A stretch of DNA of 54,991 nucleotides from Anaerolineae bacterium (GTDB lineage: Bacteria > Chloroflexota > Anaerolineae > 4572-78 > NAK82), in NCBI GenBank assembly GCA_049969215.1, contig JBMFPH010000001.1:1-54991 (forward strand). Direction: 5' to 3'. The notes beneath the pieces are model-generated. The model searched no databases. It saw only the letters and a list, made by a program, of their open reading frames with translations, and was not told the origin of the DNA. The stretch's first letter is position 1, and every line of letters starts with the position of its first letter. Position numbers and translations under genes: made by a program. This document shows positions 23,896-43,136 of this stretch, in pieces.

Positions 23896-24909
23896 ATGAA
23901 GGCGTTAGTACTAAAGGCATACAACTGTCTGGAATATGGAGAAGTTCCAGATCCGCAAGTTGCGCCAGATGAAGTCCTATTGCGCGTCAAAGCATGCGGT
24001 ATCTGTGGGAGTGATGTACATGGAATCGACGGAAGCACAGGTCGCCGCGTCCCCCCAATTATTATGGGCCACGAGGCAGCCGGCATTATTGCTCAAGTCG
24101 GAGCCGCAGTACCCGAATGGAAGGTTGGTGACCGGGTCACCTTCGATATAACCCTCCACTGTGGGACATGCTACTTCTGTCGGCGCGGTATGTTCAATTT
24201 GTGTAAACAGAGGCGCATTGTAGGGGTGTCCACACCGGGGTTCCGTGTGCATGTTCCCCATCGTGTGTTGTATCGGTTGCCAGATAATCTTTCCTTTGAG
24301 CACGCTGCCATGATGGAGCCCCTCTCCGTGGCAGCGCACGCCATTCAGCTCACCTCGATTACGCTGTACGACACAGCTGTCGTTATCGGCACAGGTGTGA
24401 TTGGTTTGCTGCTTGTGCAGCTGCTGCGGCTGGCAGGATGTGGACAGATTGTCGCTGTGGATGTTGAGCGCGACCGATTGCAACGCGCTCTGGCATTAGG
24501 AGCGGACGTGGCCCTGTTGTCTGACCCGGACAATCTACCAGCTGAGGTGCGTCAGCGTACCGAGGGACGTGGTGCTGATGTTGTTTTTGAGGTGGTAGGT
24601 CTTACGCAAACCGTTCAGATGGCAGTCGAAAGCGTGCGTGAGGGGGGTACGGTAACGTTGATTGGCAACTTGTCACCGGCGGTAGAGCTGCCATTGCAGA
24701 AGGTGGTGACTCGTCAGCTGAAGCTGATTGGCAGCACTAATGCTGCCGGCGAGTCCGAAGCTTGCCTGAGAATGCTGGCCTCCAAAGCAGTGCAGGTAGA
24801 CCCGCTTATCAGCGCTATAGCTCCCCTCTCGGAAGGAGTAGCTTGGTTCCGGCGACTGTATGCACGTGAACTTGGCTTGATAAAGGTTATTCTGGTGCCG
24901 GAGGATTGA
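23896..24909 (+). CDS. zinc-dependent medium-chain alcohol/polyol dehydrogenase
   Basis: CGICGSDVH, GHEAAG, structural-zinc loop CGTCYFCRRGMFNLC, and GTGVIG Rossmann motif. Confidence 0.85.
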   Translation: MKALVLKAYNCLEYGEVPDPQVAPDEVLLRVKACGICGSDVHGIDGSTGRRVPPIIMGHEAAGIIAQVGAAVPEWKVGDRVTFDITLHCGTCYFCRRGMFNLCKQRRIVGVSTPGFRVHVPHRVLYRLPDNLSFEHAAMMEPLSVAAHAIQLTSITLYDTAVVIGTGVIGLLLVQLLRLAGCGQIVAVDVERDRLQRALALGADVALLSDPDNLPAEVRQRTEGRGADVVFEVVGLTQTVQMAVESVREGGTVTLIGNLSPAVELPLQKVVTRQLKLIGSTNAAGESEACLRMLASKAVQVDPLISAIAPLSEGVAWFRRLYARELGLIKVILVPED

Positions 24910-25012
24910 GACATTGGGATCAAGGTGCCTCACCCTTGTTTTCGAGGACACGACTCAAAGCCTGCCCTTCTTAAAGCGGGAAGAATAAACCTGGAGTGGG
25001 AGGAATGCACTG

Positions 25013-25972
25013 ATGGAGATAAGCAGGGAAACGATGTTGGAGATGTATCGCCGTATGGTGCGCATTCGGGAGTTCGAGCTCGCGGCGATTGACCTGTTTA
25101 AGCGCGGTATGGTGAAAGGTGCCATCCACGCCTATATAGGACAGGAGGCATCAGCAGTGGGTGTGTGCATGGCATTGCGCAAGGACGACCTGATTGCCGG
25201 TACACACCGTAGCCATGGTCATAACATTGCTAAGGGCGCTGACACCAAGAAAATGATGGCCGAAATCTTGGGCAAGGAGACCGGCTACTGCAAAGGGCGT
25301 GGTGGTTCGATGCATATTGCTGCTTTTGAGACAGGGAGCTTGGGAGCACTGGCAGTAGTGGGTGCCGGAATCCCCATTGCGGTAGGAGCTGCACTGGCAT
25401 TTAAGCTGCGTGGTGAGGATCGTGTTGCAGTGCCATTTACTGGCGATGCAGGATGCAACACAGGCAATTGGCATGAAGGGTTAAACATGGCCTCGATCTG
25501 GGATCTGCCGGTGGTCTTCGTTCTCGAAAACAATCAGTATGGCGTGTCCACCAGAATCTCCTACAGCTGCAAGATCTCAGATCTTTCCTTGCGTGCCCAG
25601 TCGTATGGCATACCCGGTGTGCGCGTTGACGGCTTCGACGTACTCGCCGTGTATCAAGCTGCTAAGGAGGCGGTGGAGCGCGCGCGCCGTGGTGAAGGGC
25701 CTACTTTGCTGGTGACCGAGTCATATCGCTTCGAGGGACACTACGCCGGCGAGCCAGAGGTCTATCGTGACCGGGCAGAGGTACAGGAGTGGCGCAAGAA
25801 AGATCCCATCCCGCGTTTCCGCAATTACCTGCTTGAGCAAGGAATGGCGAGTGACGGTGAGCTGGCCGCGATCGAGGCCGAGGTGAAACAAGAGATCGCT
25901 GATGCGGTGAGGTTCGCTCAAGAGAGCCCACAACCCGATCCGGCTACGGCGATGGACTATATTTACGCTTGA
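25013..25972 (+). CDS. TPP-dependent 2-oxoacid/acetoin dehydrogenase E1 alpha subunit (copy 1)
   Basis: ...HAYIGQEA..., GGSMH, and the TPP motif reading GDAGCNTG...ENNQY. It is collinear with AcoA/PdhA-type proteins. Confidence 0.88.
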   Translation: MEISRETMLEMYRRMVRIREFELAAIDLFKRGMVKGAIHAYIGQEASAVGVCMALRKDDLIAGTHRSHGHNIAKGADTKKMMAEILGKETGYCKGRGGSMHIAAFETGSLGALAVVGAGIPIAVGAALAFKLRGEDRVAVPFTGDAGCNTGNWHEGLNMASIWDLPVVFVLENNQYGVSTRISYSCKISDLSLRAQSYGIPGVRVDGFDVLAVYQAAKEAVERARRGEGPTLLVTESYRFEGHYAGEPEVYRDRAEVQEWRKKDPIPRFRNYLLEQGMASDGELAAIEAEVKQEIADAVRFAQESPQPDPATAMDYIYA

Positions 25973-25991
25973 TGGAGCAGGAGACGAACCA

Positions 25992-27068
25992 ATGGCCACA
26001 GTCGAAAAGGACGCTGTATCATTGGGTGTGACCAAGCCCACCATGTCCCCCGATCTCATTGTACAGGTTCCACCGGGTGTGCCTGCCAAGGAGATGTCCT
26101 ATCAGGAAGCAATCCGCGAGGCGTTGCGTGAGGAGATGATGCGCGATCCCAGCGTTTTCTTGCTGGGTGAGGATATAGGCAAGCATGGAGGCGCCTTTGG
26201 GGTGACGCGCACGTTGTATGACCAGTTCGGCCCAGAGCGCGTGCGCAACACCCCTATTTCGGAAAACACTATCGCTGGTGCCGCCATCGGTGCCGCATTG
26301 GTGGGCATGCGGCCTGTGGCGGAGATCATGTTCGTCGATTTCTCCGGACTGGCAATTGACCAAATCGCGAATCAAGCGGCCAAGCTACGTTTTATGACAG
26401 GTGGGCAGTGCAAGGTGCCTATGGTGGTGCGCATGCCCCAAGGCGGCGGCGCCGGCAAGAGCACAGCCGCACAACACTCTCAGAGCTTGGAGGTATGGTA
26501 TGCTCACATCCCTGGCTTAAAGGTGGTTTTTCCCTCCACACCCTATGACGCCAAGGGGCTGCTCAAAGCAGCGATTCGGGATGACAACCCTGTCGTTTTC
26601 TTGGAACAAAAGTTCCTCTACTCATTTCGCGGTCTGGTGCCCGAAGAGGACTATGTACTTCCTCTGGGTAAGTGCGATGTCAAACGCCAGGGTTCCGATG
26701 TCACCGTGGTTGCTTCCGGCTACATGGTGTGGCACGCCATGGCCGCTGCAAAGCAGCTGGAACAAGAAGGTATCAGCGTCGAGGTGGTGGATGTATGCAC
26801 CATCAGCCCGTTGGACGAAGAGACAATCGGGCGCTCTGCCCGGAAGACGGGGCGGGCAGTGGTGGTAGCGGAAGCGGTGCGTTCTTACGGGCCGGCCAGT
26901 GAATGGGCTATGGTGATCATCGAGCAAGCATTCGACTACCTCAAAGCTCCCATCGTGCGTCTGACAGGGCGTTTCTCCCCTGTGCCCTTTGCCGATAGCA
27001 TTGAAAAGGGCTTCTGGCCAGATACTGAAGACGTGATGCAGGCAATTCGTAAGGTGATGAGCTACTGA
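25992..27068 (+). CDS. E1 beta subunit (copy 1)
   Basis: GEDIGKHGGAFGVTRTLYDQFG, NTPISEN, and a C-terminal transketolase-C-like domain. It has a ~34-aa N-terminal extension relative to copy 2. ATG 25992 has a well-spaced GGAGCAGGAG. Confidence 0.88.
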   Translation: MATVEKDAVSLGVTKPTMSPDLIVQVPPGVPAKEMSYQEAIREALREEMMRDPSVFLLGEDIGKHGGAFGVTRTLYDQFGPERVRNTPISENTIAGAAIGAALVGMRPVAEIMFVDFSGLAIDQIANQAAKLRFMTGGQCKVPMVVRMPQGGGAGKSTAAQHSQSLEVWYAHIPGLKVVFPSTPYDAKGLLKAAIRDDNPVVFLEQKFLYSFRGLVPEEDYVLPLGKCDVKRQGSDVTVVASGYMVWHAMAAAKQLEQEGISVEVVDVCTISPLDEETIGRSARKTGRAVVVAEAVRSYGPASEWAMVIIEQAFDYLKAPIVRLTGRFSPVPFADSIEKGFWPDTEDVMQAIRKVMSY

Positions 27069-27076
27069 TCTCACTT

Positions 27077-27943
27077 TTGGGCAGGGTGAGGGAGCAATTG
27101 ATCAAGATCGCTGCCACGATCGGCACACCCGATTTGCGCATGGAAACCCTGGCACTCTACAGCGGAGATGTTGCCACAGCGCTGCGCAAGGTGGCCGCGC
27201 TTGGGTACGATGGTGTTGAGTTCATGATGCGCGATCCCACCCAGCTGGATGGCACTAAGCTACGCCATTGGCTGGATGAATACAACTTGGAGCTGGCAGC
27301 CATCTGTACCGGCCATGTGTATGGCGAAGACGGCCTGGGTCTGGTGAATCCTGATGTGCAGGCGTGTCGACAGGCGATGCAGCGCATGAAGTCCATTGTC
27401 GACTTCGCAGCAACCCACTTTGAAAGAGGGACGATTGTCACGATTGGCCGCTCGCGAGGCCCTGGGTATGCAGACGATCCAGAGAGATCGTTAGCAGAGA
27501 TGGAAGCTGCCTTTGGTGAGTTGGCTGATTACGCTGCACCACGGGGGGTTCGGTTGGTGCTCGAGCCGATCAATGTGCACCAAGCACGCTATATTCACAC
27601 CACTCAAGAAGGCATCGCGATGGTGAAACGGGTCAATCGCCCTAATTTTGGCCTGATGCTGGATGTTTATCATATGAACATCGAGGACGTGAACATCTAC
27701 GACAGCTTTCGTGAGGCAGACGGCCTGTGCTGGTTCGTGCACTTTGCCGATAACAATCGTCGTTGGCCGGGCAGTGCCCATCTCAACTTCGAGGAGATCG
27801 TGCGTGTTCTCAACGAAATAAGGTACTCAGGTTATGTATCGACGGAGATTCTGCCGTGGCCCGATCCCGATACAGCAGCACGTGCCACGATTGAGTCGCT
27901 ACGACGCTACATCCCCAGTAGAACCAGGCAAAATGGGCAATGA
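27077..27943 (+). CDS. xylose-isomerase-like TIM-barrel sugar (phosphate) isomerase/epimerase (paralog of 40567-41382)
   Basis: ...LMLDVYHMNIED... and HFADNNRRWPGSAHLNF motifs are shared with the paralog. The exact start is uncertain (TTG 27077, GTG 27086 or TTG 27098). Confidence 0.8.
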   Translation: MGRVREQLIKIAATIGTPDLRMETLALYSGDVATALRKVAALGYDGVEFMMRDPTQLDGTKLRHWLDEYNLELAAICTGHVYGEDGLGLVNPDVQACRQAMQRMKSIVDFAATHFERGTIVTIGRSRGPGYADDPERSLAEMEAAFGELADYAAPRGVRLVLEPINVHQARYIHTTQEGIAMVKRVNRPNFGLMLDVYHMNIEDVNIYDSFREADGLCWFVHFADNNRRWPGSAHLNFEEIVRVLNEIRYSGYVSTEILPWPDPDTAARATIESLRRYIPSRTRQNGQ

Positions 27944-27954
27944 GGTAAACGCCT

Positions 27955-29109
27955 ATGACTGAGATGAGATCGCGTGCACGTGTCTGGGCTGCTGTCAATC
28001 ATCAGGAGCCCGACCGTGTTCCACTGGATATCGGTGGCGGGAACAGCACCACGATAGTGGTGGAGGGCTACGAGCAGCTGAAACAACGCCTGGGCGTCAG
28101 AGCACCAACGAAGGAGATGAACAAAGCATTCCGCCTGGCCCGCCTGGACGAGCAGGTGATGCAACAGCTTGGGAGTGACTGTCGGCCATTGCTGATGAAA
28201 GGGCCGCTGTACTGGACACCCCCACCGTCGCCTCCGGACACTTTTGTGGACATCTGGGGGATCACCTGGAGAAAGGCAAAATACGGGGACGGTTGCTACT
28301 ACTGGGAGCTGGCAGGCCACCCGCTCGCAGAAGCTGACGTCGGCGATCTGGATCGTTATCCGTGGCCCGACACGGATGACCCGGGTTACACGCACGGGCT
28401 TGCCGATGAGGCGCGCGACCTGTACGAGAACACGAGCTATGCCATAATGGCCGATCCTGTCTTCAAGAGCTTCTGGGAGCTTGGGTATATGTTGCGTGGC
28501 CTGGAACAGTTTCTTGTGGATCTGGTCACAGCGCCTGAGTTTGTCACGGCACTCCTGGAAAGACTGCTCATCATCAACGCGAGGATGACCAGCCGTTTTC
28601 TAAATGCCGTGGGGCCTTACATCCAGGTATTTCGGATCGCCGACGATCTGGCAACCCAACGGGGGCCTCTCATGTCGCCTCACACATTTCGTCAGCTGCT
28701 CAAACCTTTCTACAAGCGCTACATAGACTTTGTGAAATCGAAGACACCGGCCAAGATTTTCTTCCATAGTTGTGGCAATGTAACCGAATTGCTTGACGAC
28801 CTGATCGACGTCGGGGTGGAAATCATCAATCCGGTGCAGGTATCCGCGATGGGTGATACCGCTGCTCTCAAAGCACGCTTTGGTGACCGCCTCACATTTT
28901 GGGGTGGCATTGATACCCAGCATGTATTGCCTCATGGCACTCCGGCCGATGTAGAGGCAGAAGTGCGCCGGCGCATCTATGATCTCGCACCGGGAGGAGG
29001 CTATGTTGCCGCCGCAGTGCACAATATCCAACCCGATGTTCCGCCCCAGAATGTCATTGCGATGGCGGAGGCAGTGCGCAAGTATGGCGTCTATCCACTT
29101 AAGACGTGA
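27955..29109 (+). CDS. uroporphyrinogen-decarboxylase (URO-D) family protein of unknown function
   Basis: IADDLATQRGPLMSP...FHSCGNV...INPVQ pattern typical of URO-D/MtaA-like TIM barrels. No other haem-pathway genes are present. Confidence 0.75.
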   Translation: MTEMRSRARVWAAVNHQEPDRVPLDIGGGNSTTIVVEGYEQLKQRLGVRAPTKEMNKAFRLARLDEQVMQQLGSDCRPLLMKGPLYWTPPPSPPDTFVDIWGITWRKAKYGDGCYYWELAGHPLAEADVGDLDRYPWPDTDDPGYTHGLADEARDLYENTSYAIMADPVFKSFWELGYMLRGLEQFLVDLVTAPEFVTALLERLLIINARMTSRFLNAVGPYIQVFRIADDLATQRGPLMSPHTFRQLLKPFYKRYIDFVKSKTPAKIFFHSCGNVTELLDDLIDVGVEIINPVQVSAMGDTAALKARFGDRLTFWGGIDTQHVLPHGTPADVEAEVRRRIYDLAPGGGYVAAAVHNIQPDVPPQNVIAMAEAVRKYGVYPLKT

Positions 29110-29205
29110 GCATGAGGGGTGCGTTCGCGTCAAAGAGTTATAGAACAAAGACTTGAGGTCGTCAGTGTGTTCTTCTATGATACTTCATCTTGAACGGAGG
29201 AGGGG

Positions 29206-30588
29206 ATGGCAACTGAGGTTTTTATGCCCAAAATGACCGATCACATGGAAGCTGGCGAAATCATCCGTTGGCTGGTAAAGGAAGGCGATAGAGTAGAACA
29301 GGGCCAGGTTATCATGGAGGTGATGACGGATAAAGTCGTGGCCGACCTTGAGGCGCCAGCTTCAGGTATTCTGAAGGGTATCCGCCCAGGTGCCGTGGAT
29401 GGTGCCATTATCCCAGTGGGCGAGACGTTTGCCTTCATTGCCGAACCGGATGAAGAAGTGCCAGCGTTGCCACCGTTGACAGGCCAGGCAGTTCCAGCTC
29501 CTGAAAATGTCTTAACGGCTGCAGAGGCAATGGAGTCCGCGTCTGCTCCCATAGAACCAGGGCAAGTGCTCGCCGCTCCGGCCGTCCGGAGACTGGCGAA
29601 AGAGTTGGGAGTTGATCTGACGTTCGTGCGAGGCAGTGGCCCCGGCGGACGTATCCGTGAGGAAGATGTGCACGCTTTTGTAGAGGCACGCAAGTCCCAA
29701 GAAACTGCAGAAGAGTCTGGTGCTGTGCGTGCCTCACCTCTTGCTCGTCGTCTTGCTCGCGAGCTGGGTGTGGATCTGACCCAAGTGCGAGGCAGTGGCC
29801 CCGGCGGACGTATCCGCGAGGAAGATGTGCGCGCGTTTGCCGAGGCACAAAAAGCTGCGAGGGTTGCTGTTACCGCAGCTCCGGTAACAACGGCTGTGCA
29901 GGTCGAGTGGGTTGATCTGACCCCTGTGCAGCGTCTTACGGGCCAACGCATGCTGGAAAGCGTGCATCATGCACCTCAATTTACCCTTTATGTCACCGCC
30001 GACACCACCAACCTGCTTTGGCTGCGTGAAGCGTTGATGGAGCGCATCCTGGCCGAGACGGGTGAACGCCCTTCAATTACTGCGCTGTTGGTCAGGATCG
30101 TTGCAGCAGCGCTGAAGGAACACCCGCGCGTGAACGCCTCATTTGAAGGCGGGCGCATCAGACTCTACCGCGAGATCAACATTGGTGTAGCGATTGGGAC
30201 GGATGACGGTTTGGTTGTGCCGGTCATCAAGGCAGCTGACCAGAAGAATCTTCTCCAGATCGTTCAAGAGCTCAAAACATTTCAGGAGAAAGCGCGCGTT
30301 ATGCGCTTCACTAGCGAGGATTTATCAGGAGGTACCTTTACCGTCTCCAACTTGGGCATGTACGGGATCGAGCGCTTCGATGCCATCATCAATCCTCCTC
30401 AGGCAGCTATCCTGGCAGTGGGGCGCATTATCAAGACGCCTGTGGGAATGCCGGATGACACGGTTGCCCTACGCCCTATGATGAGCCTCACGCTCACGAT
30501 AGATCATCGGGTGTTAGATGGCGTGCAGGGAGCCCGGTTTTTGTCTGCAATCAAAGAAAAAATTGAGAAGCCCTATTTCTTGATCTGA
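29206..30588 (+). CDS. dihydrolipoamide acyltransferase (E2) with one lipoyl domain, two peripheral-subunit-binding domains and a catalytic domain
   Basis: Lipoyl motif VMTDKVV, two PSBD copies (...RRLAKELGVDL...GSGPGGRIREEDV...), and catalytic motif DHRVLDG. Confidence 0.92.
   Translation: MATEVFMPKMTDHMEAGEIIRWLVKEGDRVEQGQVIMEVMTDKVVADLEAPASGILKGIRPGAVDGAIIPVGETFAFIAEPDEEVPALPPLTGQAVPAPENVLTAAEAMESASAPIEPGQVLAAPAVRRLAKELGVDLTFVRGSGPGGRIREEDVHAFVEARKSQETAEESGAVRASPLARRLARELGVDLTQVRGSGPGGRIREEDVRAFAEAQKAARVAVTAAPVTTAVQVEWVDLTPVQRLTGQRMLESVHHAPQFTLYVTADTTNLLWLREALMERILAETGERPSITALLVRIVAAALKEHPRVNASFEGGRIRLYREINIGVAIGTDDGLVVPVIKAADQKNLLQIVQELKTFQEKARVMRFTSEDLSGGTFTVSNLGMYGIERFDAIINPPQAAILAVGRIIKTPVGMPDDTVALRPMMSLTLTIDHRVLDGVQGARFLSAIKEKIEKPYFLI
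29572..29859 (+). repeat. in-frame tandem duplication (159-nt unit) encoding the E2 peripheral-subunit-binding domain
   Basis: Copy 1 starts at 29572 and copy 2 at 29731. Bases 29626-29671 and 29785-29830 are identical at 45 of 46 positions. Confidence 0.85.
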
Positions 30589-30604
30589 GATTGGGGGAGA
30601 TCCA

Positions 30605-31357
30605 ATGCGCCTCAAGGACAAAGTCGCGATTATCACTGGCGGTGGTTCGGGTATTGGACGCGCCAGCGCCGAGCTGTTCGCACTGGAGGGTGCCAAAGTC
30701 GTGGTGGCTGACTTCAATGAGAAAGCGGGTCAGGAAACGGCTGCAGCCATTCGGCAGTCAGGAGGTGAGGCCATCTTCGTGCAGGTGGACGTTTCGGACT
30801 CGGCGCAAGTGCAACGCCTGGTGGACATCACTCTCCAAACCTACAGCGGGGTTGACATTCTGGTCAACAACGCCGGTATTCTTCTCTTCGGGACAGCTCT
30901 CGACACCAGTGAGCAGGATTGGGAACGAGTGATTGCCATTAACCTGACAGGCACCTTCTTGGTCAGCAAAGCGGTGCTCCCCCATATGATCGCGCGCGGG
31001 GGCGGTTCCATCGTCAATTTGACCTCCTCCACCGGGGCACACGATGCAGCAGCTAACACGGTGGCCTATGTCGCTTCCAAGGGGGGAGTGGCACTGTTGA
31101 CCAGAGCCATGGCGATTGACCACGCAAAGCATAATGTGCGGGTCAATGCTGTCGCACCAGGCCCTACAGATACCCCAATGCTCCGAGATGCTATGTCGCC
31201 TGAACAACTGTCAGCCTTTGCCGCCACTTTCCCGATGGGACGTTTGGGTCGTCCGGAGGAGCTGGCACGTGCAATACTGTTTCTAGCATCGGACGAGGCT
31301 TCGTTCGTTACGGGAGCTATCCTAGCCGTGGATGGAGGGCAGACAGCTCAAGTGTAA
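30605..31357 (+). CDS. short-chain dehydrogenase/reductase (SDR)
   Basis: TGGGSGIG cofactor motif, NNAG, and the YVASKGG catalytic YxxxK. Confidence 0.9.
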   Translation: MRLKDKVAIITGGGSGIGRASAELFALEGAKVVVADFNEKAGQETAAAIRQSGGEAIFVQVDVSDSAQVQRLVDITLQTYSGVDILVNNAGILLFGTALDTSEQDWERVIAINLTGTFLVSKAVLPHMIARGGGSIVNLTSSTGAHDAAANTVAYVASKGGVALLTRAMAIDHAKHNVRVNAVAPGPTDTPMLRDAMSPEQLSAFAATFPMGRLGRPEELARAILFLASDEASFVTGAILAVDGGQTAQV

Positions 31358-31404
31358 GCACGGTCAGGGGCGAGTCAGGGGATTGAGAAGGCTATATCAG
31401 GGTT

Positions 31405-32157: not shown

Positions 32158-32164
32158 GAACAGA

Positions 32165-33157: not shown

Positions 33158-33158
33158 G

Positions 33159-34142
33159 ATGGCATTGATGACCTACCGGGAAGCGGTACGCCAGGCATTG
33201 CGTGAGGAGTTGTTGAACGACGAGCGTGTCATTTTGCTAGGCGAGGACATTGCGGAGTTCGGGGGTACCTTCAAGGTAACCTTGGGTCTGCTGGAGGAGT
33301 TCGGTCCGCGACGTGTTCGCAATACTCCCATTTCCGAGACGGCCATCCTAGGAGCAGCGGTTGGCGCGGCTGCTACCGGCTTGCGCCCCATTGCGGAGAT
33401 CATGTACAGCGACTTCTTCGCCGTAGCGATGGATCAAGTGGTGAATCAGGCAGCCAAGATGCGTTATATGTTCGGCGGCAAAATATCGCTACCCCTGACT
33501 ATTCGCTCAACGATGGGGGGGCGTCGTTCGGCCGCTGCGCAGCACAGCCAGTGCCTTGAAGCTTGGTTTATGCACATCCCCGGTATCAAGATTGCTATGC
33601 CCTCGAATGCGTATGACGCTAAGGGATTGTTGAAAACCGCTGTGCGTGATCCCAACCTTACGGTCATTTTTGAAAACAAGATGCTGTACAACATGAAGGG
33701 CGAAGTACCCGACGAACCTTATTTCGTGCCGTGGGGGCAGGCAAAGGTGGTGCGCATGGGCAAGGATGTTACCATTGTGGCGCTGTCGGATATGGTGGAC
33801 TTTTCGCTGAAAGCTGCTGAGCAGCTGGCAGCAGAGGGCATTTCGGTCGAGGTGATTGACCCCCGTACGTTGGTACCATTAGATATTGAGACCATTGTCC
33901 GCTCGGTGCAGAAGACAGGACGACTGGTTATAGCCCACGAAGCTTGCATAACAGGGGGTGTGGGCGCAGAAATCGCAGCTCAGGTCACCTATCGCGCGTT
34001 TGATTACCTGGTAGCACCTGTTGAGCGCGTGGGTGCCAAAGATTCGCCCATTCCGTTCAGCCCTGTTCTTGAGCGTACAATCCTGCCGGATGACCAGGAT
34101 GTAATTGCGGCAGTGCACCGTACGTTGGACTACGCCGCGTAG
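33159..34142 (+). CDS. E1 beta subunit (copy 2)
   Basis: MALMTYREAVRQAL..., GEDIAEFGGTFKVT, and NTPISET. ATG 33159 lies 1 nt after the alpha stop and is preceded by GGAGGTGG. The longer track ORF (32880) is an out-of-frame read-through of the alpha gene. Confidence 0.9.
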   Translation: MALMTYREAVRQALREELLNDERVILLGEDIAEFGGTFKVTLGLLEEFGPRRVRNTPISETAILGAAVGAAATGLRPIAEIMYSDFFAVAMDQVVNQAAKMRYMFGGKISLPLTIRSTMGGRRSAAAQHSQCLEAWFMHIPGIKIAMPSNAYDAKGLLKTAVRDPNLTVIFENKMLYNMKGEVPDEPYFVPWGQAKVVRMGKDVTIVALSDMVDFSLKAAEQLAAEGISVEVIDPRTLVPLDIETIVRSVQKTGRLVIAHEACITGGVGAEIAAQVTYRAFDYLVAPVERVGAKDSPIPFSPVLERTILPDDQDVIAAVHRTLDYAA

Positions 34143-34169
34143 CTTGCACAGACTTTAGGAGAACAATCT

Positions 34170-35228
34170 ATGAGAGCAGCAGTGTGGCATGCACGAGGTG
34201 ACGTGCGGGTGGAGGAGATTCCGGAGCCGCCCCATCCTCCAGCCGGTCAGGTCAAGGTAAAGGTGGCCTGGTGTGGGTTATGCGGGACAGATTTGCATGA
34301 ATATTTGGGCGGTCCACTCTACATTCCAGCCGATGCACCCCATCCTCTGACCGGTGTCAAGGCGCCAGTTATTCTGGGCCATGAAATGTCGGGCGACGTA
34401 GTGGAGGTGGGCAACGGCGTAACCCGCATCAAAGTGGGCGACCGTGTGGCACTTTGTCCCATCATCGGTTGTCTGGAATGCACATGGTGTCGTTCTGGGC
34501 TGATGGGACTATGTCCGAACATCGCCTTCCTGGGCGTTTCGTGGACCGGTGGTGGCTTTGCTCAGTATGTCAACGTATATGAATACATGTGCTACATATT
34601 GCCACCGGAGGTCTCGTACGAAGTGGGCGCCTTGGTAGAGCCCTTTGCAGCTGTCTATCGTGCCTTGAAGCAGGCCAGCATACAGCCCGGGGAAACTGTG
34701 GCAGTTGTCGGTGCGGGACCCATTGGGCTGATGGGCATCCAGGTGGCACGAATCCAAGGCGCGGGGCAGGTCATTGCGGTTGAACCGGCGGCCAAGCGGC
34801 AAGAGTTGGCGCGTCGCTGTGGCGCTACAGCTGTCGTCGATCCTGTACGCCAGGATGCTCTGGCAGCTGTGCGCGATCTCACAGGTGGCGCTGGAGCTGA
34901 TACAGTTTTCGAAGCGGCCGGCGTCGAGGCAACCGGGATATTGGCTGGCCGCATCGCACGTCGCAAGGGTCGTGTGGTGGTGATGGGAGTCTTCGAGCGT
35001 CCCGCACCGCTTGATTATACAGACCTGGTCTATGGCGAAAAGGTTGTAATGGGCAGTATGGGGGGCTATGGCTTGTTCGACGAAGCCATCCGGGTCATGG
35101 CGAGTGGAGCATTTGACGGTGAGGTGCTTATCACTGGCAAGATCAAGCTGGACAACATTCTCGAAGGATTTGAGGCGCTGATCAAGCACAAAGAAGAACA
35201 TGTGAAGATCCTGGTGTCTCCGGCTTAG
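34170..35228 (+). CDS. zinc-dependent dehydrogenase resembling (R,R)-2,3-butanediol dehydrogenase
   Basis: WCGLCGTDLHEYLGGPLYIP...HPLTG...ILGHEMSG is collinear with B. subtilis BdhA as I recall it. Structural-zinc loop CLECTWCRSGLMGLC. Confidence 0.82.
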   Translation: MRAAVWHARGDVRVEEIPEPPHPPAGQVKVKVAWCGLCGTDLHEYLGGPLYIPADAPHPLTGVKAPVILGHEMSGDVVEVGNGVTRIKVGDRVALCPIIGCLECTWCRSGLMGLCPNIAFLGVSWTGGGFAQYVNVYEYMCYILPPEVSYEVGALVEPFAAVYRALKQASIQPGETVAVVGAGPIGLMGIQVARIQGAGQVIAVEPAAKRQELARRCGATAVVDPVRQDALAAVRDLTGGAGADTVFEAAGVEATGILAGRIARRKGRVVVMGVFERPAPLDYTDLVYGEKVVMGSMGGYGLFDEAIRVMASGAFDGEVLITGKIKLDNILEGFEALIKHKEEHVKILVSPA

Positions 35229-35298
35229 CAGATCTGATCATTCGGTGAAACCGTCGTAGCACCACTCTACACTTACACAACGCAGGGAGGACAATTTG

Positions 35299-36213
35299 AT
35301 GGACACACATTGGGACAATTATTGTACGATGAGCATTGTTCATTTCATGGCATTTCCTCAAACCATCGGCGGTGAGGGACCTATCGTGGAGACGGTCAGC
35401 AAGATCGCTGAAGATCCCTTTTTCGGTGCCATCGAGATCGGCTGGATCAAGGATGCGCAGGTGCGTCGGGCGACACGTGCAATCATTGAGGCTGCTCACA
35501 TGAAGGTTGGCTACGCAGCACAGTCAGCGATACTACTCCAGAAGCTCAATCTGAATAGCCTTGATGAAGCTGAACGTGAGCATGCTGTGAGTGAATTAAA
35601 GAAATGTATTGATGAGGCAGCCGAGCTAGGTGCCCAACGGGTTGCCTATCTATCCGGCAAGGACCCTGGTGATGCTGAGCGGCCAGCTGCCCTGGAAGCG
35701 TTGGTGAAGTCCACGCGGGAGCTGTGTGCCTATGGACGTGAAAAGGGAATCGCGTTAACTTGCGAGATTTTCGATCGTTCCATTGACAAGAAAGCTCTGA
35801 TCGGCCCAAGCAGCTACGCCGCTGAGTATGCACGCATTGTGCGCGAGGATTACCCAGATTTTGGTCTGATGTATGACTTAAGCCATCTGCCGCTTCTCTT
35901 TGAGAATGCAGAGACGGCTCTGTCAGTAATCAAAGATTTCCTGGTGCATATTCATATTGGCAATGCAGTGGTAGATGCTGGCACGCCTGGCTATGGCGAC
36001 CTGCATCCACGCTTTGGCTGGCCCGGTGGTGCCAACGATGTTTTCGAACTGGTAGATTTCCTGCGCGCTCTGTTTAAAGTTGGCTACCTGAAAGAAGGCA
36101 ACGGACGCCCATGGATCGGCTTCGAGGTAAAACCCCAGGCACCGGGAGAAACCCCTGAATTGATCATCGCTGGCACCAAGCGTGTCTGGAAGGAAGCGTG
36201 GTCACGCGTTTGA
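35299..36213 (+). CDS. xylose-isomerase-like TIM-barrel protein (distinct subfamily from 27077/40567)
   Basis: The length and motif spacing (...YDLSHLP..., HIHIGN...) are typical of the AP-endonuclease-2/sugar-phosphate-isomerase fold. AGGGAGG lies 8 nt upstream of ATG 35299. Confidence 0.7.
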   Translation: MDTHWDNYCTMSIVHFMAFPQTIGGEGPIVETVSKIAEDPFFGAIEIGWIKDAQVRRATRAIIEAAHMKVGYAAQSAILLQKLNLNSLDEAEREHAVSELKKCIDEAAELGAQRVAYLSGKDPGDAERPAALEALVKSTRELCAYGREKGIALTCEIFDRSIDKKALIGPSSYAAEYARIVREDYPDFGLMYDLSHLPLLFENAETALSVIKDFLVHIHIGNAVVDAGTPGYGDLHPRFGWPGGANDVFELVDFLRALFKVGYLKEGNGRPWIGFEVKPQAPGETPELIIAGTKRVWKEAWSRV

Positions 36214-36245
36214 TATCGCACATTCCAATCGGAGGAGTGGATCTC

Positions 36246-38606
36246 GTGTCACCAGCCACTGAAAAACACATAGTGCAGCACTATCAGGAGCTTTCGCAAC
36301 ATTTTCAGCATTGGGAAAAGGTCAAGGATCTGGTTGATAACCTGATTGACCTGATTCTCAATTATCGTCAAAGTGGCCATCCGGGTGGCTCGCGTTCCAA
36401 GGTGTACATGCTGATCAGTTTATTGCTCAGTGGGGCAATGAGATGGGACATTCGCCATCCGGAAAAGCGCTTCGGCGACCGATTCATCTTGGGTGCCGGA
36501 CACACGGTACCGCTGGTCTATTGTACGCTTGCGGTGCTGAACGAGGCGCTACGCGTGAAGTACAGACAGACCGGTGACACTCGTTACGACCTATCCCATT
36601 TGGGCGAGCATGTATTGTATTGGGAAGACCTGCTGAATTTCCGTCATCGCGGTGGGCTCTCTGGTCACGCTGAGATGGAAGGCAAGACTTTGTTCCTCAA
36701 ATTCAACACCGGTCCCTCAGGACATGGCAGCCCTGCTTCGGCGGGGGAGGCATTGGCACTCAAGCGTGCCGGTGCTGAAGGTGTAAAGGTGTTTGTCATC
36801 GAGGGAGAGGGGGGTCTGACACCCGGTGCCAATTACGAGACCATGAACTCGGCTTGGGGATTGGCATTGGACAACCTGTACCATCTGATCGACTGGAATG
36901 ACTTCGGCATTGATGACCATCCCATCAGTAGTGTCGTATATGGCAGACCGGGTGACTGGTACGCGGCGCATGGCTGGCGCGTGTTCGGTACCGAAAACGG
37001 CGAGGACTGGGATGCAGTGACACAGGCAATCCTCTCCATGGTGCTGACAGACAATCCGGAATGTAGACCCACAATGGCCTGGTTCAAGACACGCAAGGGA
37101 CGAGGCTATCTGAAATATGACAATGTGGTGCACGGCGTCCCACACAAGCTCAACTGTGAGCTGTTCTGGGAGACAAAGCGCCCATTTGCCGAAAAGTATG
37201 GGGCGAAGTTTGTCAATTTCGGCGGGTGTGCGCCTGATGATCCCATCGCCCTGCGTGCTGAGTTCGAGGCCAATCTCCGCGCTGTTATCGATGTGCTGCA
37301 CCGTGACCAGGCACTGATCGATTATCTGGCCGATCGTCTGGTAGAATTGGGCGATGCAGTACCTCGTGAGATACCTTCTTTCCGACTGGGGAGGAAGGGC
37401 AATCCTTATCAAGACGCACGACTGTATGATTACCGCAACTATCCGGCCGATTTGTACGTTAAGCCTGGTACCATAATCGCCAACCGAATGGCGCTAGCGA
37501 AGTGGGGAGCCTGGGCCAACGCATTCGGGGCCCGGGAATACGATCGGCCTCTATTTATTGCCTGTTCCGCTGATTTGGCCAGCTCGACCAACATTATCGG
37601 TTTTGCTCAGCCCTATGGCGACTTTCCAGGCTATGGGTGGTATGAGCGCTACGGGTCGTCCGAGGGGGTCTTGTTGCCTCAGGAGATCACCGAATTCGCC
37701 AACGCGGGTATTTTGGTTGGCATGGCAACGGTGAACTTCGCCCCCAATCCAGAGGAGGAATTCGATGGATTCTGGGGCGTCTGCTCCACATATGGGTCCT
37801 TCTCCTACCTCAAGTATGGCATGTTTCGCCTGTTCAGCCAGTTGGCACAGGATTGCCAATGGAAGGTGGGCAAGGTGCTATGGGTCGCCGGCCATTCCGG
37901 ACCTGAGACGGCAGAGGATAGCCGCACGCATTTTGGTATCTTCGCACCTGGGGTGACCCAGCTGTTTCCGGAGGGGTCTGTCATCAATCTCCATCCCTGG
38001 GAACACAACGAGGTACCGGTGTTGTTGGGTGCAGCGCTCAAACAACCGGTACCCATTGTAGCGCTCCACCTGACCCGTCCCCCGATTGAGGTGCCAGATC
38101 GTGAGAAGCTGGGTATTCCTTCACATTTCGAGGCAGCGCGCGGTGCCTATGTGATCCGCGATTATCGCACCGATCAGCCACACGGCGGCACGTTGATTGT
38201 GCAGGGCACCAGCGCAGTGGCCAACACGCTTCAGCTGTTGCCCGAGCTGGAACGGCGAAAACTGAACGTGAAAATCGTGTGTGCCACCAGTCCGGAGCTG
38301 TTTGCGCTTCAGCCGGAGGAGTATCGCCTGCGTGTGTTGTCCCCTGCGGACCGCCTTGATTCGACCGTTATCACAACACAAGCACGCCGCTTGATGAGCG
38401 ATTGGCTGTTCAATGAACTGGCTGAGGAATATGCTCTCTCCAGCGATTGGGACAATCGTTGGCGCACAGGCGGAAGTGTGTCGGAAGTTTTGGACGAGGC
38501 ACATTTGACACCTGAGTGGATTTTGAAAGGCATTGAGCGTTTCGTGGAGGAGCGTACGTCGCGTTTAACACGCTTACGTGCCTGGTTAGACGAGGTATCT
38601 CGCTAA
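36246..38606 (+). CDS. atypically long (~786 aa) fused transketolase-like TPP enzyme
   Basis: SGHPGGSRSK, GAGHTVPLVY, and a TPP-binding region reading GEGGLTPGANYE...NLYHLIDWNDFGID in place of GDG...N. The pyrimidine-binding and C-terminal domains follow. GTG 36246 follows GGAGGAG and avoids overlap with the previous gene. Confidence 0.75.
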   Translation: MSPATEKHIVQHYQELSQHFQHWEKVKDLVDNLIDLILNYRQSGHPGGSRSKVYMLISLLLSGAMRWDIRHPEKRFGDRFILGAGHTVPLVYCTLAVLNEALRVKYRQTGDTRYDLSHLGEHVLYWEDLLNFRHRGGLSGHAEMEGKTLFLKFNTGPSGHGSPASAGEALALKRAGAEGVKVFVIEGEGGLTPGANYETMNSAWGLALDNLYHLIDWNDFGIDDHPISSVVYGRPGDWYAAHGWRVFGTENGEDWDAVTQAILSMVLTDNPECRPTMAWFKTRKGRGYLKYDNVVHGVPHKLNCELFWETKRPFAEKYGAKFVNFGGCAPDDPIALRAEFEANLRAVIDVLHRDQALIDYLADRLVELGDAVPREIPSFRLGRKGNPYQDARLYDYRNYPADLYVKPGTIIANRMALAKWGAWANAFGAREYDRPLFIACSADLASSTNIIGFAQPYGDFPGYGWYERYGSSEGVLLPQEITEFANAGILVGMATVNFAPNPEEEFDGFWGVCSTYGSFSYLKYGMFRLFSQLAQDCQWKVGKVLWVAGHSGPETAEDSRTHFGIFAPGVTQLFPEGSVINLHPWEHNEVPVLLGAALKQPVPIVALHLTRPPIEVPDREKLGIPSHFEAARGAYVIRDYRTDQPHGGTLIVQGTSAVANTLQLLPELERRKLNVKIVCATSPELFALQPEEYRLRVLSPADRLDSTVITTQARRLMSDWLFNELAEEYALSSDWDNRWRTGGSVSEVLDEAHLTPEWILKGIERFVEERTSRLTRLRAWLDEVSR

Positions 38607-38627
38607 AGGGTAGGGGAGGCTGTGAGT

Positions 38628-39518
38628 ATGCACTATCATTCTGAATCGCTTATCCGTGACCTTTCTGCGAAAGCACAGTCTTTCCGCATCCAGGTGCTCA
38701 AAATGGTCTATAACGCTCAGTCGGGGCATCTGGGTGGCGCCTTTTCGGTCGCTGAGATTCTGACCGCGCTGTTTTTCCACCATCTGCGACTGGATCCTTT
38801 ACGCCCTGACTGGCCGGAGCGTGATCGTTTGCTCTTCTCCAAGGGCCATGCATGTGCCATGCTTTACACGGCAATGGCCTATCGTGGTTTCTTTCCGGTT
38901 GAAGAGCTGATGACCTTCCGTCAGCTGGATAGCCGGCTGCAAGGTCATCCTGATCGTGTCAAACTTCCCGGAGTGGAGATATGCGCCGGGCCGCTGGGCC
39001 AAGGTGTTGCCATTGGCGTTGGAATGGCGCTGGCACTGAGGATGGATCAACCTAAACCTTCTGCCATCACGGCGCCTTCAGCGCGCGCTTCACGTGCGCG
39101 CGTCTATGTGGTGCTAGGAGATGGTGAGATCAATGCCGGAGTGGTGTGGGAAGGCGCTATGGCAGCTGCCAAGTACCGCCTGGGTAATCTAACCGCTATT
39201 TTGGACTACAACGGTGTCCAACAAACAGGTGCTGTTGCGGATGTGATGCCTATGGAGCCAGTCGTCGCAAAGTGGGAAGCGTTCGGTTGGCACGTTCAGG
39301 AAATAGATGGACACAATATGGGTGAGATTCTCAGTGCACTCGATCGCGCCGACGAGGTGCATGCACGCCCCAGCATCATCATTGCCCGCACTACGAAGGG
39401 CAAGGGGGTCAGTTTTATGGAGTACGACAATCGCTGGCACGGCATGCCCCCCACCCAGGAGCAATATGAACGAGCACTGGCCGAGCTGGAGGAGGGATTG
39501 AGGGCATGGCAGAACTAG
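38628..39518 (+). CDS. split transketolase, N-terminal (TPP-binding) subunit
   Basis: SGHLGGAFS, SKGHA, and the GDGEINAGVVWE motif. About 297 aa. Confidence 0.9.
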   Translation: MHYHSESLIRDLSAKAQSFRIQVLKMVYNAQSGHLGGAFSVAEILTALFFHHLRLDPLRPDWPERDRLLFSKGHACAMLYTAMAYRGFFPVEELMTFRQLDSRLQGHPDRVKLPGVEICAGPLGQGVAIGVGMALALRMDQPKPSAITAPSARASRARVYVVLGDGEINAGVVWEGAMAAAKYRLGNLTAILDYNGVQQTGAVADVMPMEPVVAKWEAFGWHVQEIDGHNMGEILSALDRADEVHARPSIIIARTTKGKGVSFMEYDNRWHGMPPTQEQYERALAELEEGLRAWQN

Positions 39519-40444
39519 TTCTGATGCGCAAAGCATACGGCGAGGCATTGGTACAGCTGGGGCGCGACAACCCGAATGTGGTTGTGCTCAGCGCAGATGT
39601 CTCCAACTCAGATTTCAGCTATATGTTTCAGGAGGCCTTTCCAGATCGCTTCTTCAACGTGGGCATTGCCGAACAGTGCCTGGTGGATGTCGCCGTAGGC
39701 CTCGCGTACAGTGGCAAGATCCCGTTCGCAAATACTTTTGCCTTCTTGCTTGCTACGCGTGCGTTGGAGATGGTGCGCACGCACTGCTGTTACGGCGAAG
39801 CAAACGTCAAATTGATGGCAGCTTATGGGGGTGTCTCCGATTCGTTCGATGGACCCACCCATCATGCTATCACCGACATCGCTATCATGCGCAGCCTGCC
39901 CAACATGACCGTGGTGGTGCCGAGCGACACGGTGGCGGTTGCCAAGCTACTACCTCAGGTGGCCGACTGGCAGGGACCAGTGTACTTCCGGATGAATCGC
40001 AACGAGGTGCCAGTGCTGTTCGATCATACCTACGAGCCAAGAATCGGTAAAGCAGTGGACGTGCGCCGGGGAAAGGATGTGACCCTGATCGGTACAGGGT
40101 TGATGTTCAGTCGTTGTCTGGAAGCAGCTGAGATGTTGGCCAGCGAGGGGATTGATGCCTGGGTCATGGAAATACACACCATTAAGCCTCTGGACGCGGA
40201 CGCGGTGGTGCGAGCTGCGCGTGAGACGGGTGCTCTGGTTACCGCAGAAGAGCACAACATCATAGGCGGGCTAGGCGCTGCGGTAACCGAGGTTGTGAGC
40301 GATGCTTACCCGGTGCCGGTAAAGCGGGTGGGCATCCCAGACCGCTTCACAGAAACTGGCCCTTATGCTGCCTTGCTAGACCGATACGGCATGGCCGTGA
40401 TGGATGTGGTTAGGGCAGCTCGAGCTGCGGTTGCGGCGAAGTAG
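39506..40444 (+). CDS. split transketolase, C-terminal (pyrimidine-binding) subunit
   Basis: FNVGIAEQ and GPTHH motifs. It overlaps the N-subunit gene by 13 nt. Confidence 0.9.
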   Translation: MAELVLMRKAYGEALVQLGRDNPNVVVLSADVSNSDFSYMFQEAFPDRFFNVGIAEQCLVDVAVGLAYSGKIPFANTFAFLLATRALEMVRTHCCYGEANVKLMAAYGGVSDSFDGPTHHAITDIAIMRSLPNMTVVVPSDTVAVAKLLPQVADWQGPVYFRMNRNEVPVLFDHTYEPRIGKAVDVRRGKDVTLIGTGLMFSRCLEAAEMLASEGIDAWVMEIHTIKPLDADAVVRAARETGALVTAEEHNIIGGLGAAVTEVVSDAYPVPVKRVGIPDRFTETGPYAALLDRYGMAVMDVVRAARAAVAAK

Positions 40445-40477: not shown

Positions 40478-40506
40478 TTGACACAGACGAGAAGGTGATG
40501 TATAGT
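40478..40506 (+). promoter_or_regulatory. promoter upstream of the TIM-barrel/ABC-transporter operon
   Basis: TTGACA (40478-40483), a 17-nt spacer, then TATAGT (40501-40506). Confidence 0.6.
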
Positions 40507-40511
40507 GCGAC

Positions 40512-40537
40512 TGGTCATATGGTATGCCAGCATACCT
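40512..40537 (+). promoter_or_regulatory. operator: TGGTCA box plus palindrome GGTATGC-CA-GCATACC (site 1 of 2)
   Basis: TGGTCA lies at 40512-40517. TGGTATGCCAGCATACCT (40520-40537) is identical to 49434-49451. The palindrome starts 14 nt after the -10 in both sites. Confidence 0.6.
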
Positions 40538-43124: not shown

Positions 43125-43136
43125 GGGTGATCGTAT

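Follow-up and report, generated by a model that had tools for sequence, protein, structure and literature searches.

The question raised by this locus is why one run of genes in an Anaerolineae bacterium carries so many thiamine diphosphate (TPP)-dependent enzymes, and what these enzymes would accomplish together. The window, i.e. the whole stretch of DNA analyzed, is the complete 54,991-bp contig of an Anaerolineae bacterium metagenome-assembled genome (NCBI), and its region 23896-40444 holds 15 genes, every one on the + strand according to the open reading frame (ORF) listing and the Pfam/NCBIfam scans, among them two pairs of E1 alpha and beta subunits (E1-1 and E1-2), one E2 acyltransferase, a long transketolase-like protein (TKL) and a split transketolase (TKN and TKC). 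The original prediction, made from the sequence letters, was that the region is not a plain aco operon, and that it oxidizes a polyol or ketose, epimerizes it and removes C2 units by E1/E2 and by transketolases. This idea survived every check that we ran, while the unit proved to be larger (to 54.7 kb) and more modular, with a second promoter and a downstream kinase, and the functions were assigned from context. The region most likely represents an undescribed way of cutting C2 units off a sugar-derived hydroxyketone, and we favor, with moderate confidence, a pathway-specific Aco-type acyloin-cleaving complex that would act together with transketolases, its substrate being a sugar, polyol or sugar acid.

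The region is the promoter-proximal half of a single-strand catabolic island of ~31 kb (23.8-54.7 kb), in which the intergenic gaps are short or the genes overlap and no convincing + strand terminator was seen. The order of its genes is Zn-dependent alcohol dehydrogenase (Zn-ADH), E1 alpha/beta, TIM barrel, URO-D-like protein, E2, short-chain dehydrogenase/reductase (SDR) and GntR/FCD regulator, followed by E1 alpha/beta, Zn-ADH, TIM barrel, TKL and the N and C subunits of the split transketolase, so that the gene families and order first proposed were right by Pfam/NCBIfam. The features of this half were as follows.

23896..24909, + strand: ADH1, Zn-dependent polyol dehydrogenase, sorbitol dehydrogenase-like (Pfam ADH_N/ADH_zinc_N)
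25013..25972, + strand: E1 alpha copy 1 (E1a1), PF00676 at 292 bits, TPP motif GDAG
25992..27068, + strand: E1 beta copy 1 (E1b1), Transket_pyr and Transketolase_C domains, conserved 33-aa N-terminal extension
27077..27943, + strand: TIM1, ketose-3-epimerase/IolO-like TIM barrel (PF01261)
27955..29109, + strand: URO-D/MtaA-like protein, PF01208 on the C-terminal half only, H-x-C...H metal site retained
29206..30588, + strand: E2 acyltransferase with a lipoyl domain, two tandem peripheral subunit-binding domains (PSBDs; residues 123-161 and 175-214) and a catalytic domain with DHRxxDG
30605..31357, + strand: SDR oxidoreductase, passing the NF005559 glucose-1-dehydrogenase subfamily cut-off (267 > 215)
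31405..32157, + strand: GntR1, FadR-subfamily (FCD) regulator, LldR/GlcC/PdhR-like
32165..33157, + strand: E1 alpha copy 2 (E1a2), TPP motif GDGA, 54% identical to copy 1
33159..34142, + strand: E1 beta copy 2 (E1b2), 327 aa, 52% identical to copy 1
34170..35228, + strand: ADH2, (R,R)-butanediol-dehydrogenase-like Zn-ADH
35296..36213, + strand: TIM2, divergent xylose-isomerase-like TIM barrel (PF01261, 74 bits), always adjoining TKL
36246..38606, + strand: TKL, 786-aa transketolase-like TPP enzyme with a weak Transketolase_N match and the metal motif GEG for GDG
38622..39518, + strand: TKN, N-terminal (PP-domain) subunit of the split transketolase, Transketolase_N at 202 bits
39506..40444, + strand: TKC, C-terminal (Pyr and C domain) subunit of the split transketolase, overlapping TKN by 13 nt

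Some of these starts differ from those of the raw ORFs. E1a2 starts at 32165, later than its raw ORF, and is called as 330 aa in the close relative L169; E1b2 starts at 33159, not 32880, its ATG lying 1 nt past the E1a2 stop with the ribosome-binding site GGAGGTGG ahead; TKL starts at 36246, not at the raw-ORF start (802 aa), and its 786 aa match the homologues and the recorded protein; and the true start of TIM1 is probably 27098, its relatives being called as a 277-aa product.

Both E1 alpha copies scored below the cut-off of the pyruvate dehydrogenase (PDH) E1 alpha model TIGR03182 (371 and 351, cut-off 393.85), the only PDH model that the E1 betas passed was the subfamily model NF006667 (384 and 390, cut-off 321), and the nearest solved structures of E1 are human PDH E1. 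By the description of TIGR03182, acetoin-type E1 alpha subunits would be expected just under the PDH equivalog cut-off, and the scores are compatible with an Aco-type E1 but are no proof of one. E1 beta copy 1 is 358 aa long throughout its orthologues. The contrast noted earlier between GDAG in copy 1 and GDGA in copy 2 is correct, and it extends to the two clades: the TPP motif of the E1-1 clade is G[DE][AG]G (GDAG 37, GEAG 10, GEGG 10, GDGG 7 and GDGA 1, n = 65), with the metal-binding Asp replaced by Glu in a third of the members, while that of the E1-2 clade is GDGA. GDAG is thus a clade signature of E1-1 and not a one-off.

The E2 carries its lipoyl Lys in MTDKV and reads DHRVLDG at the catalytic motif, and scored 345 with the PDH E2 model TIGR01349 (cut-off 445). 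Its double-PSBD architecture, which is unusual, occurred in most E2s of the clade when the PSBD copies were counted by BLAST of the domain, and in distant clade members the two copies have drifted apart in sequence, which indicates that the double PSBD is old and not a recent duplication. Loci without a second E1 pair also have double-PSBD E2s, so the idea of one PSBD for each E1 pair was rejected as a rule. Dihydrolipoyl dehydrogenase (E3), said in the original prediction to be missing from 23896-40444, was absent from the whole 55-kb window (tblastn with E. coli Lpd) and from every locus with an E1-1 orthologue; it was found only beside distant (48%) E1 genes, in the classical E1-E2-E3 order. 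E3 is commonly shared in trans, which makes its absence less special than it had seemed, but the consistency of the absence across the loci of the clade is real.

Orthologues of E1-1 (E1 alpha at least 73%, 73-88% identity) were found at 65 loci in Chloroflexota, Spirochaetota and Acidobacteriota, with 82-84% identity between these phyla. Partners were counted over 24 distant loci, each 7 kb or longer, and comprised E2 (16 loci), the SMP30/gluconolactonase SGL (8), TIM1 (7), SDR (6), the URO-D-like protein (5), an ABC importer (5) and ADH2 (3). E1-2 was present in 3/24 (L100, L118 and L122), TIM2 and TKL in 2/24 (L096 and L100) as well as in the shorter locus L101, and split transketolase orthologues in one (L097), while a distant split transketolase (36-38% identity) was held by L015. 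The arrangement varied from locus to locus. The Spirochaetota operon has short gaps and reads solute-binding protein, permease, permease, E1 alpha, E1 beta, E2, SDR, SGL, ADH2, URO-D-like protein, aldo-keto reductase (AKR), PfkB kinase and SIS protein; L100, L118 and L122 read GntR, E1a1, E1b1, TIM1, E2, E1a2 (70%) and E1b2 (80%); L096, L100 and L101 have TKL and TIM2 divergently upstream of E1-1, the TIM2-TKL pair being 68-72% identical; and L097 reads E1-1/E2, SDR, lactonase, iron-dependent alcohol dehydrogenase (Fe-ADH), LarA, TKN and TKC. L171 (ENA ERZ25039602 contig_26138, 75-11940), which is outside the 24-locus set, combines E1-1/E2 with two split transketolases that differ from each other, and also has two adjacent GntR genes, a Zn-ADH, a TIM3 orthologue and a short URO-D-like gene, and L102 has an acetolactate-synthase-type TPP enzyme alongside. 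Further neighbors of E1-1 loci were AKR, Fe-ADH, aldehyde:ferredoxin oxidoreductase and LarA-like epimerases. The same partners thus rejoin E1-1 in shuffled order and orientation across phyla, which indicates functional coupling, and because E1-1 recurs with E1-2, TKL and split transketolases in independent loci of shuffled order, the TPP enzymes do not cluster here by chance. Conservation of the gene set, as sought by neighborhood analysis, was therefore found as an association that recurs across phyla, and full-text literature searches found no orthologous cluster already assigned to a known pathway, a finding that would have spoken against the original prediction.

Among close relatives, the full gene set was kept in L011, L017, L084 and L169. 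Two independent assemblies of another close relative, L001 and L006, shared identical clean internal deletions, with the remainder intact at about 85% nucleotide identity: ADH1 (24164-24993), E1a2 and E1b2 (32301-34039, stubs of both left), and a distal series (46685-52090) that takes in the amidohydrolase, M24, 2-hydroxyacid dehydrogenase, PGDH_C and HpcH genes. These deletions indicate that E1-2 is ancestral and dispensable and was lost together with ADH1, and L001/L006 are a natural knockout series that divides core from accessory genes. Beyond the clade, E1 pairs about 50% identical lie inside polyol/sugar clusters on plasmids of cultured bacteria: the cluster of Sinorhizobium meliloti Rm41 pRM41A (L166) includes lpdA and lipA, and those of a Rubrobacter indicoceani plasmid (L167) and of Sphingobium (L168) have a stand-alone 80-aa lipoyl protein in place of E2. 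Aco-like E1 systems tied to genes for sugars or polyols thus occur widely, and the literature searches found none that has been characterized.

The transketolase-type enzymes were compared with E. coli TktA by alignment of residue positions. TKL scored 102 bits with the curated transketolase model (cut-off 682), and kept the catalytic residues checked except for Asp155, which is Glu; of the four phosphate-binding positions it kept three (Ser385, His461 and Arg520), position 358 being Trp where the alignment is uncertain. TKL belongs to a separate, compact and strongly conserved family, with about 75% identity between Chloroflexota and NC10 and the next full-length relatives at 61% and then 29-37%. 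Its AlphaFold model was poor (pLDDT 54). Elsewhere (L002-L005), TKL stands alone or beside unrelated genes, including 2-hydroxyacid and beta-hydroxyacid dehydrogenases. The split transketolase has all catalytic residues checked; of the phosphate-binding positions, Ser385 and Arg520 are conserved, Tyr replaces His461, and Arg358 lies where the two subunits meet. Half-length TKN and TKC cannot reach the cut-offs of full-length models. The clade is 75-80% conserved and is also found elsewhere, in some loci with only LarA and in others with FucI-like and RpiB genes; possibly it is a general transketolase for sugar phosphates that sugar clusters often recruit.

For the oxidoreductases, the best solved relative of ADH1 was sorbitol dehydrogenase (169 bits) and that of ADH2 was 6IE0, an (R,R)-butanediol dehydrogenase (296 bits, next structure 179); PGAP names ADH2 2,3-butanediol dehydrogenase. 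On these scores ADH2 clearly falls in the (R,R)-butanediol dehydrogenase subfamily and would convert a vicinal diol to an acyloin. The SDR scored 257 with the BudC meso-butanediol dehydrogenase model, slightly under the cut-off of 270. TIM1 scored 228 with the IolO model (cut-off 300), its closest structure being TM0416, followed by ketose 3-epimerases. Enzymes of the ketose 3-epimerase type invert the carbinol adjoining the keto group.

In the URO-D-like protein, H271 and C273 match Zn ligands of MtaA in the alignment, and His356 takes the place of the third ligand. Foldseek with its model (pLDDT 74) returned MtaA, UROD and MetE matches and nothing more specific. HemE was rejected (hemE equivalog 20 bits, cut-off 303), and so was an MtaA/CmuA corrinoid:thiol methyltransferase (65 against 235), with His as third Zn ligand and no corrinoid partner; domain scans found no B12-binding or corrinoid protein in the window.

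Beyond 40444 the + strand runs unbroken to 54.7 kb with a third epimerase, the ABC importer, the lactonase, the kinase and a second GntR. The regulatory sites and the features of this distal half were as follows.

23762..23789, + strand: promoter P1, TTGACA, 16-nt spacer and TG-extended TATAAT, a 12/12 sigma-70 consensus match
23790..23810, no strand: candidate operator, inverted repeat GTCATA-N9-TATGAC directly 3' of the -10 box
40478..40536, + strand: promoter P2, TTGACA-17-TATAGT, 11/12 (promoter-like site 40478-40506), then the operator-like GTCATATGGTATGCCAGCATACC (operator site 40514-40536)
40567..41382, + strand: TIM3, IolO/ketose-3-epimerase-like TIM barrel outside 23896-40444, scoring 255 with the IolO model (cut-off 300)
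41640..45036, + strand: CUT1-type ABC importer, 494-aa solute-binding protein (41640-43124) and two permeases
from 45056, + strand: first genes of the distal part, a cyclase-family hydrolase and then SMP30/gluconolactonase (SGL, 45807-46682)
within 45056..54697, + strand: middle of the distal part, amidohydrolase_2/UxaC-like, M24/creatinase-like, 2-hydroxyacid dehydrogenase, PGDH_C protein and HpcH aldolase
to 54697, + strand: end of the distal part, DUF1537 acid-sugar kinase (52246-53652) and then GntR2, the second GntR regulator

The strong promoter first placed at 23762-23789 is borne out by its full sigma-70 match and extended -10 box. The single run described behind it goes on to 54.7 kb, with the second promoter at 40478, which precedes TIM3 and the ABC transporter. 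GTCATA-N9-TATGAC occurs once in the window, where chance would give 0.01 occurrences, and an element, GTCATATG(G)TATG, is common to P1 and P2 and directly follows each promoter. The P2 site is kept in L001, and the P1 operator element is kept in both L001 and L087, in contrast to the diverged spacer that flanks it; when the motif was sought in further loci, its support was limited to these close or moderately close relatives. We infer that the shared element is a candidate GntR operator which may tie the two transcription units into one regulon. In NCBIfam the similarity of the GntR regulators is to LldR, GlcC, PdhR and UxuR, which sense hydroxy acids, and GntR1-like and GntR2-like genes stand side by side in L171.

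It was also correct that 23896-40444 contains no sugar kinase; because the same-strand island extends to 54.7 kb, this is valid solely inside that span, and the DUF1537 kinase at 52246-53652 belongs to the island. The kinase has the SBD_N and NBD_C architecture, and its best equivalog score was 68 (cut-off 450), with 29 bits for OiaK; partner genes of the OtnI/OtnC/PdxA2 type known from DUF1537 kinase routes were not identified. Orthologues of the ABC importer (66-76%) lie directly upstream of E1-1 in the Spirochaetota loci, the adjacency of TKC and TIM3 is kept in L171 and L173, and the SGL and PGDH_C genes recur beside E1-1 orthologues. The PGDH_C/KARI_N-domain protein (50580-51419) has no NCBIfam match and recurs at 41-45% identity beside the E1-1 clusters L089, L090 and L102 of other phyla. 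An 84-aa ORF (41389-41643) between TIM3 and the binding-protein gene has no family match, is uncalled in L001 and may be no real gene.

The route that we propose would begin with import of an unphosphorylated sugar, polyol or sugar acid by the CUT1 ABC transporter. ADH1, ADH2 and the SDR, as NAD(P)-dependent enzymes, would then turn a vicinal diol into an alpha-hydroxyketone (acyloin), joined by the lactonase if the route runs via an aldonate; the ketose-3-epimerase-like TIM barrels would adjust the carbinol beside the keto group; and the TPP enzymes would break the C-C bond beside the carbonyl. In this last step two E1 pairs of differing specificity would load a C2 acyl unit on the lipoyl arm of the one shared E2, which would free it as acyl-CoA, the remainder of the molecule leaving as an aldehyde. 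Since the window has no CoA-ester-handling enzyme, the acyl-CoA would most simply be acetyl-CoA, with a 5-keto-6-deoxy-aldonate, a 1-deoxy-ketose or a similar methyl-ketone as its source. The split transketolase and TKL may move or remove ketol units from hydroxymethyl-ketones (5-keto-aldonates, keto-uronates), E3 would be supplied in trans, and carboxylate-sensing GntR-type repressors would govern the two promoters via the shared operator.

We infer all of these reactions, and the substrate class, from gene content and context. The importer, the SDR-lactonase-ADH2 order, the hydroxy-acid GntRs, the LarA-like epimerases, the aldehyde-processing neighbors (AKR, Fe-ADH and aldehyde:ferredoxin oxidoreductase) and the acid-sugar kinase point to a sugar or sugar-acid substrate over free acetoin, and the neighbors that process aldehydes and 2-hydroxyacids fit cleavage of an acid-sugar-like substrate to acyl-CoA and aldehyde. 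The butanediol-dehydrogenase-like nature of ADH2 suggests a preferred substrate class with a CH3-CHOH-CHOH- terminus (6-deoxy-aldonates, 1-deoxy-polyols). A tentative and rather doubtful form of the proposal is a non-phosphorylative route in which two E1 pairs on a double-PSBD E2 would cleave sugar-derived acyloins (e.g. 5-keto-6-deoxy-aldonates from the butanediol-dehydrogenase-like enzyme) to acetyl-CoA and a C4 acid-aldehyde, the split transketolase and TKL would take the hydroxymethyl-ketone analogues, and the URO-D/MtaA-like zinc enzyme would do a step without known counterpart. Our specific guess, to which we give a low probability, is that a hexose or 6-deoxyhexose passes through lactone, aldonate and (omega-1)-keto-aldonate, the last being split into C2 and a C4 acid-aldehyde which feeds the DUF1537 kinase branch.

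Comparison with known systems places the island near acetoin dehydrogenase, AcoA/AcoB/AcoC/AcoL, which occurs with butanediol dehydrogenase in Bacillus subtilis, Pelobacter carbinolicus and Cupriavidus necator. As in that system, both E1s are made of separate alpha (PF00676) and beta (PF02779 and PF02780) subunits, the E2 has a lipoyl domain and a DHRxxDG acyltransferase domain, an (R,R)-butanediol-dehydrogenase-like Zn-ADH and a BudC-like SDR stand alongside, and by analogy TPP-dependent cleavage of an alpha-hydroxyketone to acyl-CoA and aldehyde would be expected. Unlike it, the island has no dedicated acoL/E3 and no AcoR, its regulators being GntR/FCD; it has two E1 pairs per E2, a double-PSBD E2 and the E1-1 motif G[DE][AG]G; and across phyla it is set in a sugar importer/lactonase/epimerase/URO-D/transketolase context. 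The PDH complex with PdhR shares the closest curated models and structures and an adjoining FadR-type GntR, but here the scores stay under the equivalog cut-offs, there is no E3, E1 is present in two divergent copies, and the context is pathway-specific and horizontally mobile.

Among transketolase-dependent sugar routes are those of apulose-4-phosphate transketolase (D-apiose) and SqwGH (sulfo-transketolase), and the island resembles them in having a split transketolase beside sugar isomerase/epimerase TIM barrels in a dedicated catabolic cluster. Genes of the apiose route include apulose kinase and apiose isomerase, and those of the sulfo-transketolase route include sulfoquinovosidase, sulfoquinovose isomerase and sulfoacetaldehyde reductase. 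These partners are not evident in the island, the one model scored for these routes being OiaK (29 bits). The inositol route of Thermotoga maritima gives the best NCBIfam matches of ADH1 and ADH2 (IolM, scyllo-inosose 3-dehydrogenase) and of TIM1 and TIM3 (IolO, 5-keto-L-gluconate epimerase), with TM0416 as nearest structure, which indicates keto-aldonate or ketose substrates; however, the scores were 190 and 251 for IolM NF041097 (cut-off 450) and 228 and 255 for IolO NF041099 (cut-off 300), IolG and IolN were not identified in the island, and the Thermotoga route has no TPP enzymes. Membership of the Thermotoga inositol, D-apiose, sulfo-transketolase and DUF1537 tetronate routes was set aside, all curated models being under cut-off. 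A transketolase cuts 5-keto-D-gluconate, a 5-keto-aldonate, at C4-C5 to yield tartaric semialdehyde (PMC12016104), by analogy the same C4-C5 chemistry as we propose for hydroxymethyl-ketones; unlike the island, that case involves no E1/E2 and concerns a canonical transketolase in a biosynthetic setting, the activity being engineered or a side reaction. The island is thus a variant of known systems, an Aco-type lipoamide complex plus catabolic transketolases, and not categorically new.

The simplest other explanation is plain acetoin/2,3-butanediol catabolism, in which E1/E2 would be an ordinary acetoin dehydrogenase, ADH2 would act as the (R,R)-butanediol dehydrogenase and the SDR as the meso-butanediol dehydrogenase, TIM1 would be no more than an acetoin racemase, and the transporter, lactonase, transketolases and URO-D-like protein would be unrelated neighbors. 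The best structure for ADH2 (296 bits, next 179) and its PGAP name, the SDR score close to the BudC cut-off (257 against 270) and the E1 alpha scores just under the PDH equivalog cut-off, which is presumably the acetoin-type place in the model description, would all suit it, as would the Fe-ADH and aldehyde oxidoreductase neighbors in the case of acetaldehyde. Yet several phyla have E1/E2 in tight operons amid a CUT1 sugar-type importer, lactonase, epimerase and URO-D-like gene, none of which acetoin needs; acoL/E3 and an AcoR-type sigma-54 activator are lacking, with GntR/FCD regulators present; two divergent E1 pairs (54% identical) are kept together in distant loci; and transketolases recur alongside E1 pairs. 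We hold this explanation to be unlikely. Very unlikely, in our judgment, is a dehydrogenase for pyruvate or another 2-oxoacid that stands beside sugar-acid genes and oxidizes aldolase-released pyruvate under a PdhR-like GntR repressor, as in E. coli pdhR-aceEF-lpd. It accords with the nearest curated models (PDH E1 alpha at 371 and 351, the PDH E1 beta subfamily at 384 and 390 > 321, and PDH E2), with human PDH E1 as nearest structures, with the matches of GntR1 to PdhR/LldR models and with the HpcH aldolase downstream, but E1 alpha and E2 are under the equivalog cut-offs, E3 is in no locus of the clade, two different E1 pairs serve one E2, and the genes travel between phyla with sugar genes at 82-84% identity, which is atypical of a housekeeping PDH; moreover, the HpcH aldolase is gone in L001/L006 while E1-1/E2 are retained.

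We consider it quite unlikely that the island is a mosaic in which an Aco-like unit, a split transketolase of the pentose-phosphate type, a TKL unit and an acid-sugar unit are independent modules with only their strand in common, so that the TPP density has no single-pathway meaning. The clean loss of ADH1, E1-2 and five distal genes in L001/L006 with the rest intact, the second promoter at 40478, the occurrence of TKL alone or beside unrelated genes in L002-L005 and of the split transketolase with RpiB and FucI-like genes or LarA only, and the differences in partner genes between loci are what such a mosaic would predict; against it, the same partners rejoin E1-1 in varied orders and orientations across phyla, an operator-like motif is common to P1 and P2, and homologues of both GntR genes adjoin in L171. 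The possibility raised at the outset, that the genes are independent and unrelated units, is thus countered by the recurrence across phyla, while the deletions and the transketolase genes in unrelated contexts speak for it in part. Some of the same observations weigh against the acyloin-cleaving complex with transketolases that we favor. Content is modular and, because L001/L006 drop ADH1 and E1-2 (and five distal genes) and keep the rest, this argues for at least two separable branches and not one indivisible pathway; TKL and the split transketolase are also found away from any E1; and their kept phosphate-binding residues hint at phosphorylated substrates. ADH2, SDR and E1/E2 are the exact set for plain acetoin/2,3-butanediol use, no protein (0) reaches the equivalog cut-off for any specific function, the window has no aldehyde dehydrogenase or CoA-handling (CoA-ester) enzyme, and the role of the URO-D-like protein is unexplained by the route.

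At the exact upstream edge of the island lies a tRNA-Leu(GAG) gene (23327-23411, - strand), which has its own perfect 12/12 promoter (23455-23426, - strand). This edge tRNA and the 82-84% identity of E1-1 across phyla suggest that the island was gained horizontally; neither GC content nor skew marks an island boundary in the window. Upstream of tRNA-Leu are housekeeping and unrelated genes. Two tandem ornithine/aspartate carbamoyltransferase-like paralogues and an amino-acid (carbamate) kinase-like gene occupy 20090-23254 (- strand), such paired transcarbamoylases upstream of the island being unusual, and beyond them are two genes for pyridoxal phosphate-dependent enzymes and then a GT2 glycosyltransferase. 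A GFO/IDH/MocA oxidoreductase (14192-15340, - strand) has levoglucosan dehydrogenase as top match (293 bits, cut-off 650). The block from the transcarbamoylases through this gene is syntenic in L169 and L170; for L084 the comparison covered the two carbamoyltransferase-like genes and the kinase-like gene. The contig begins with a bacterial alpha-2-macroglobulin (1-3635), of which the C-terminal 1208 aa remain, cut by the contig end, and the G+C of the first 3 kb is markedly higher (0.65 against about 0.55).

To our knowledge, acetoin and methylacetoin are the only substrates known for Aco-type E1/E2 complexes, and transketolases in dedicated catabolic routes are a recent discovery. We regard the island as a good lead that is open to experiment, and not as a proven pathway. 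The idea can be tested through the homologous E1 clusters that cultured Sinorhizobium and Rubrobacter carry on plasmids, which are possible laboratory models. The URO-D-like Zn proteins are very common in Anaerolineae, Spirochaetota and Acidobacteriota. If the proposal is true, three large families that lack annotation would gain a first function, namely the E1-1 clade with its G[DE][AG]G motif, the 786-aa transketolase-like family and these URO-D-like Zn proteins, and uncultured anaerobes that are abundant (Anaerolineae, Spirochaetota and Acidobacteriota) would have a new means of making acyl-CoA directly from sugars or deoxy-sugars without prior phosphorylation.

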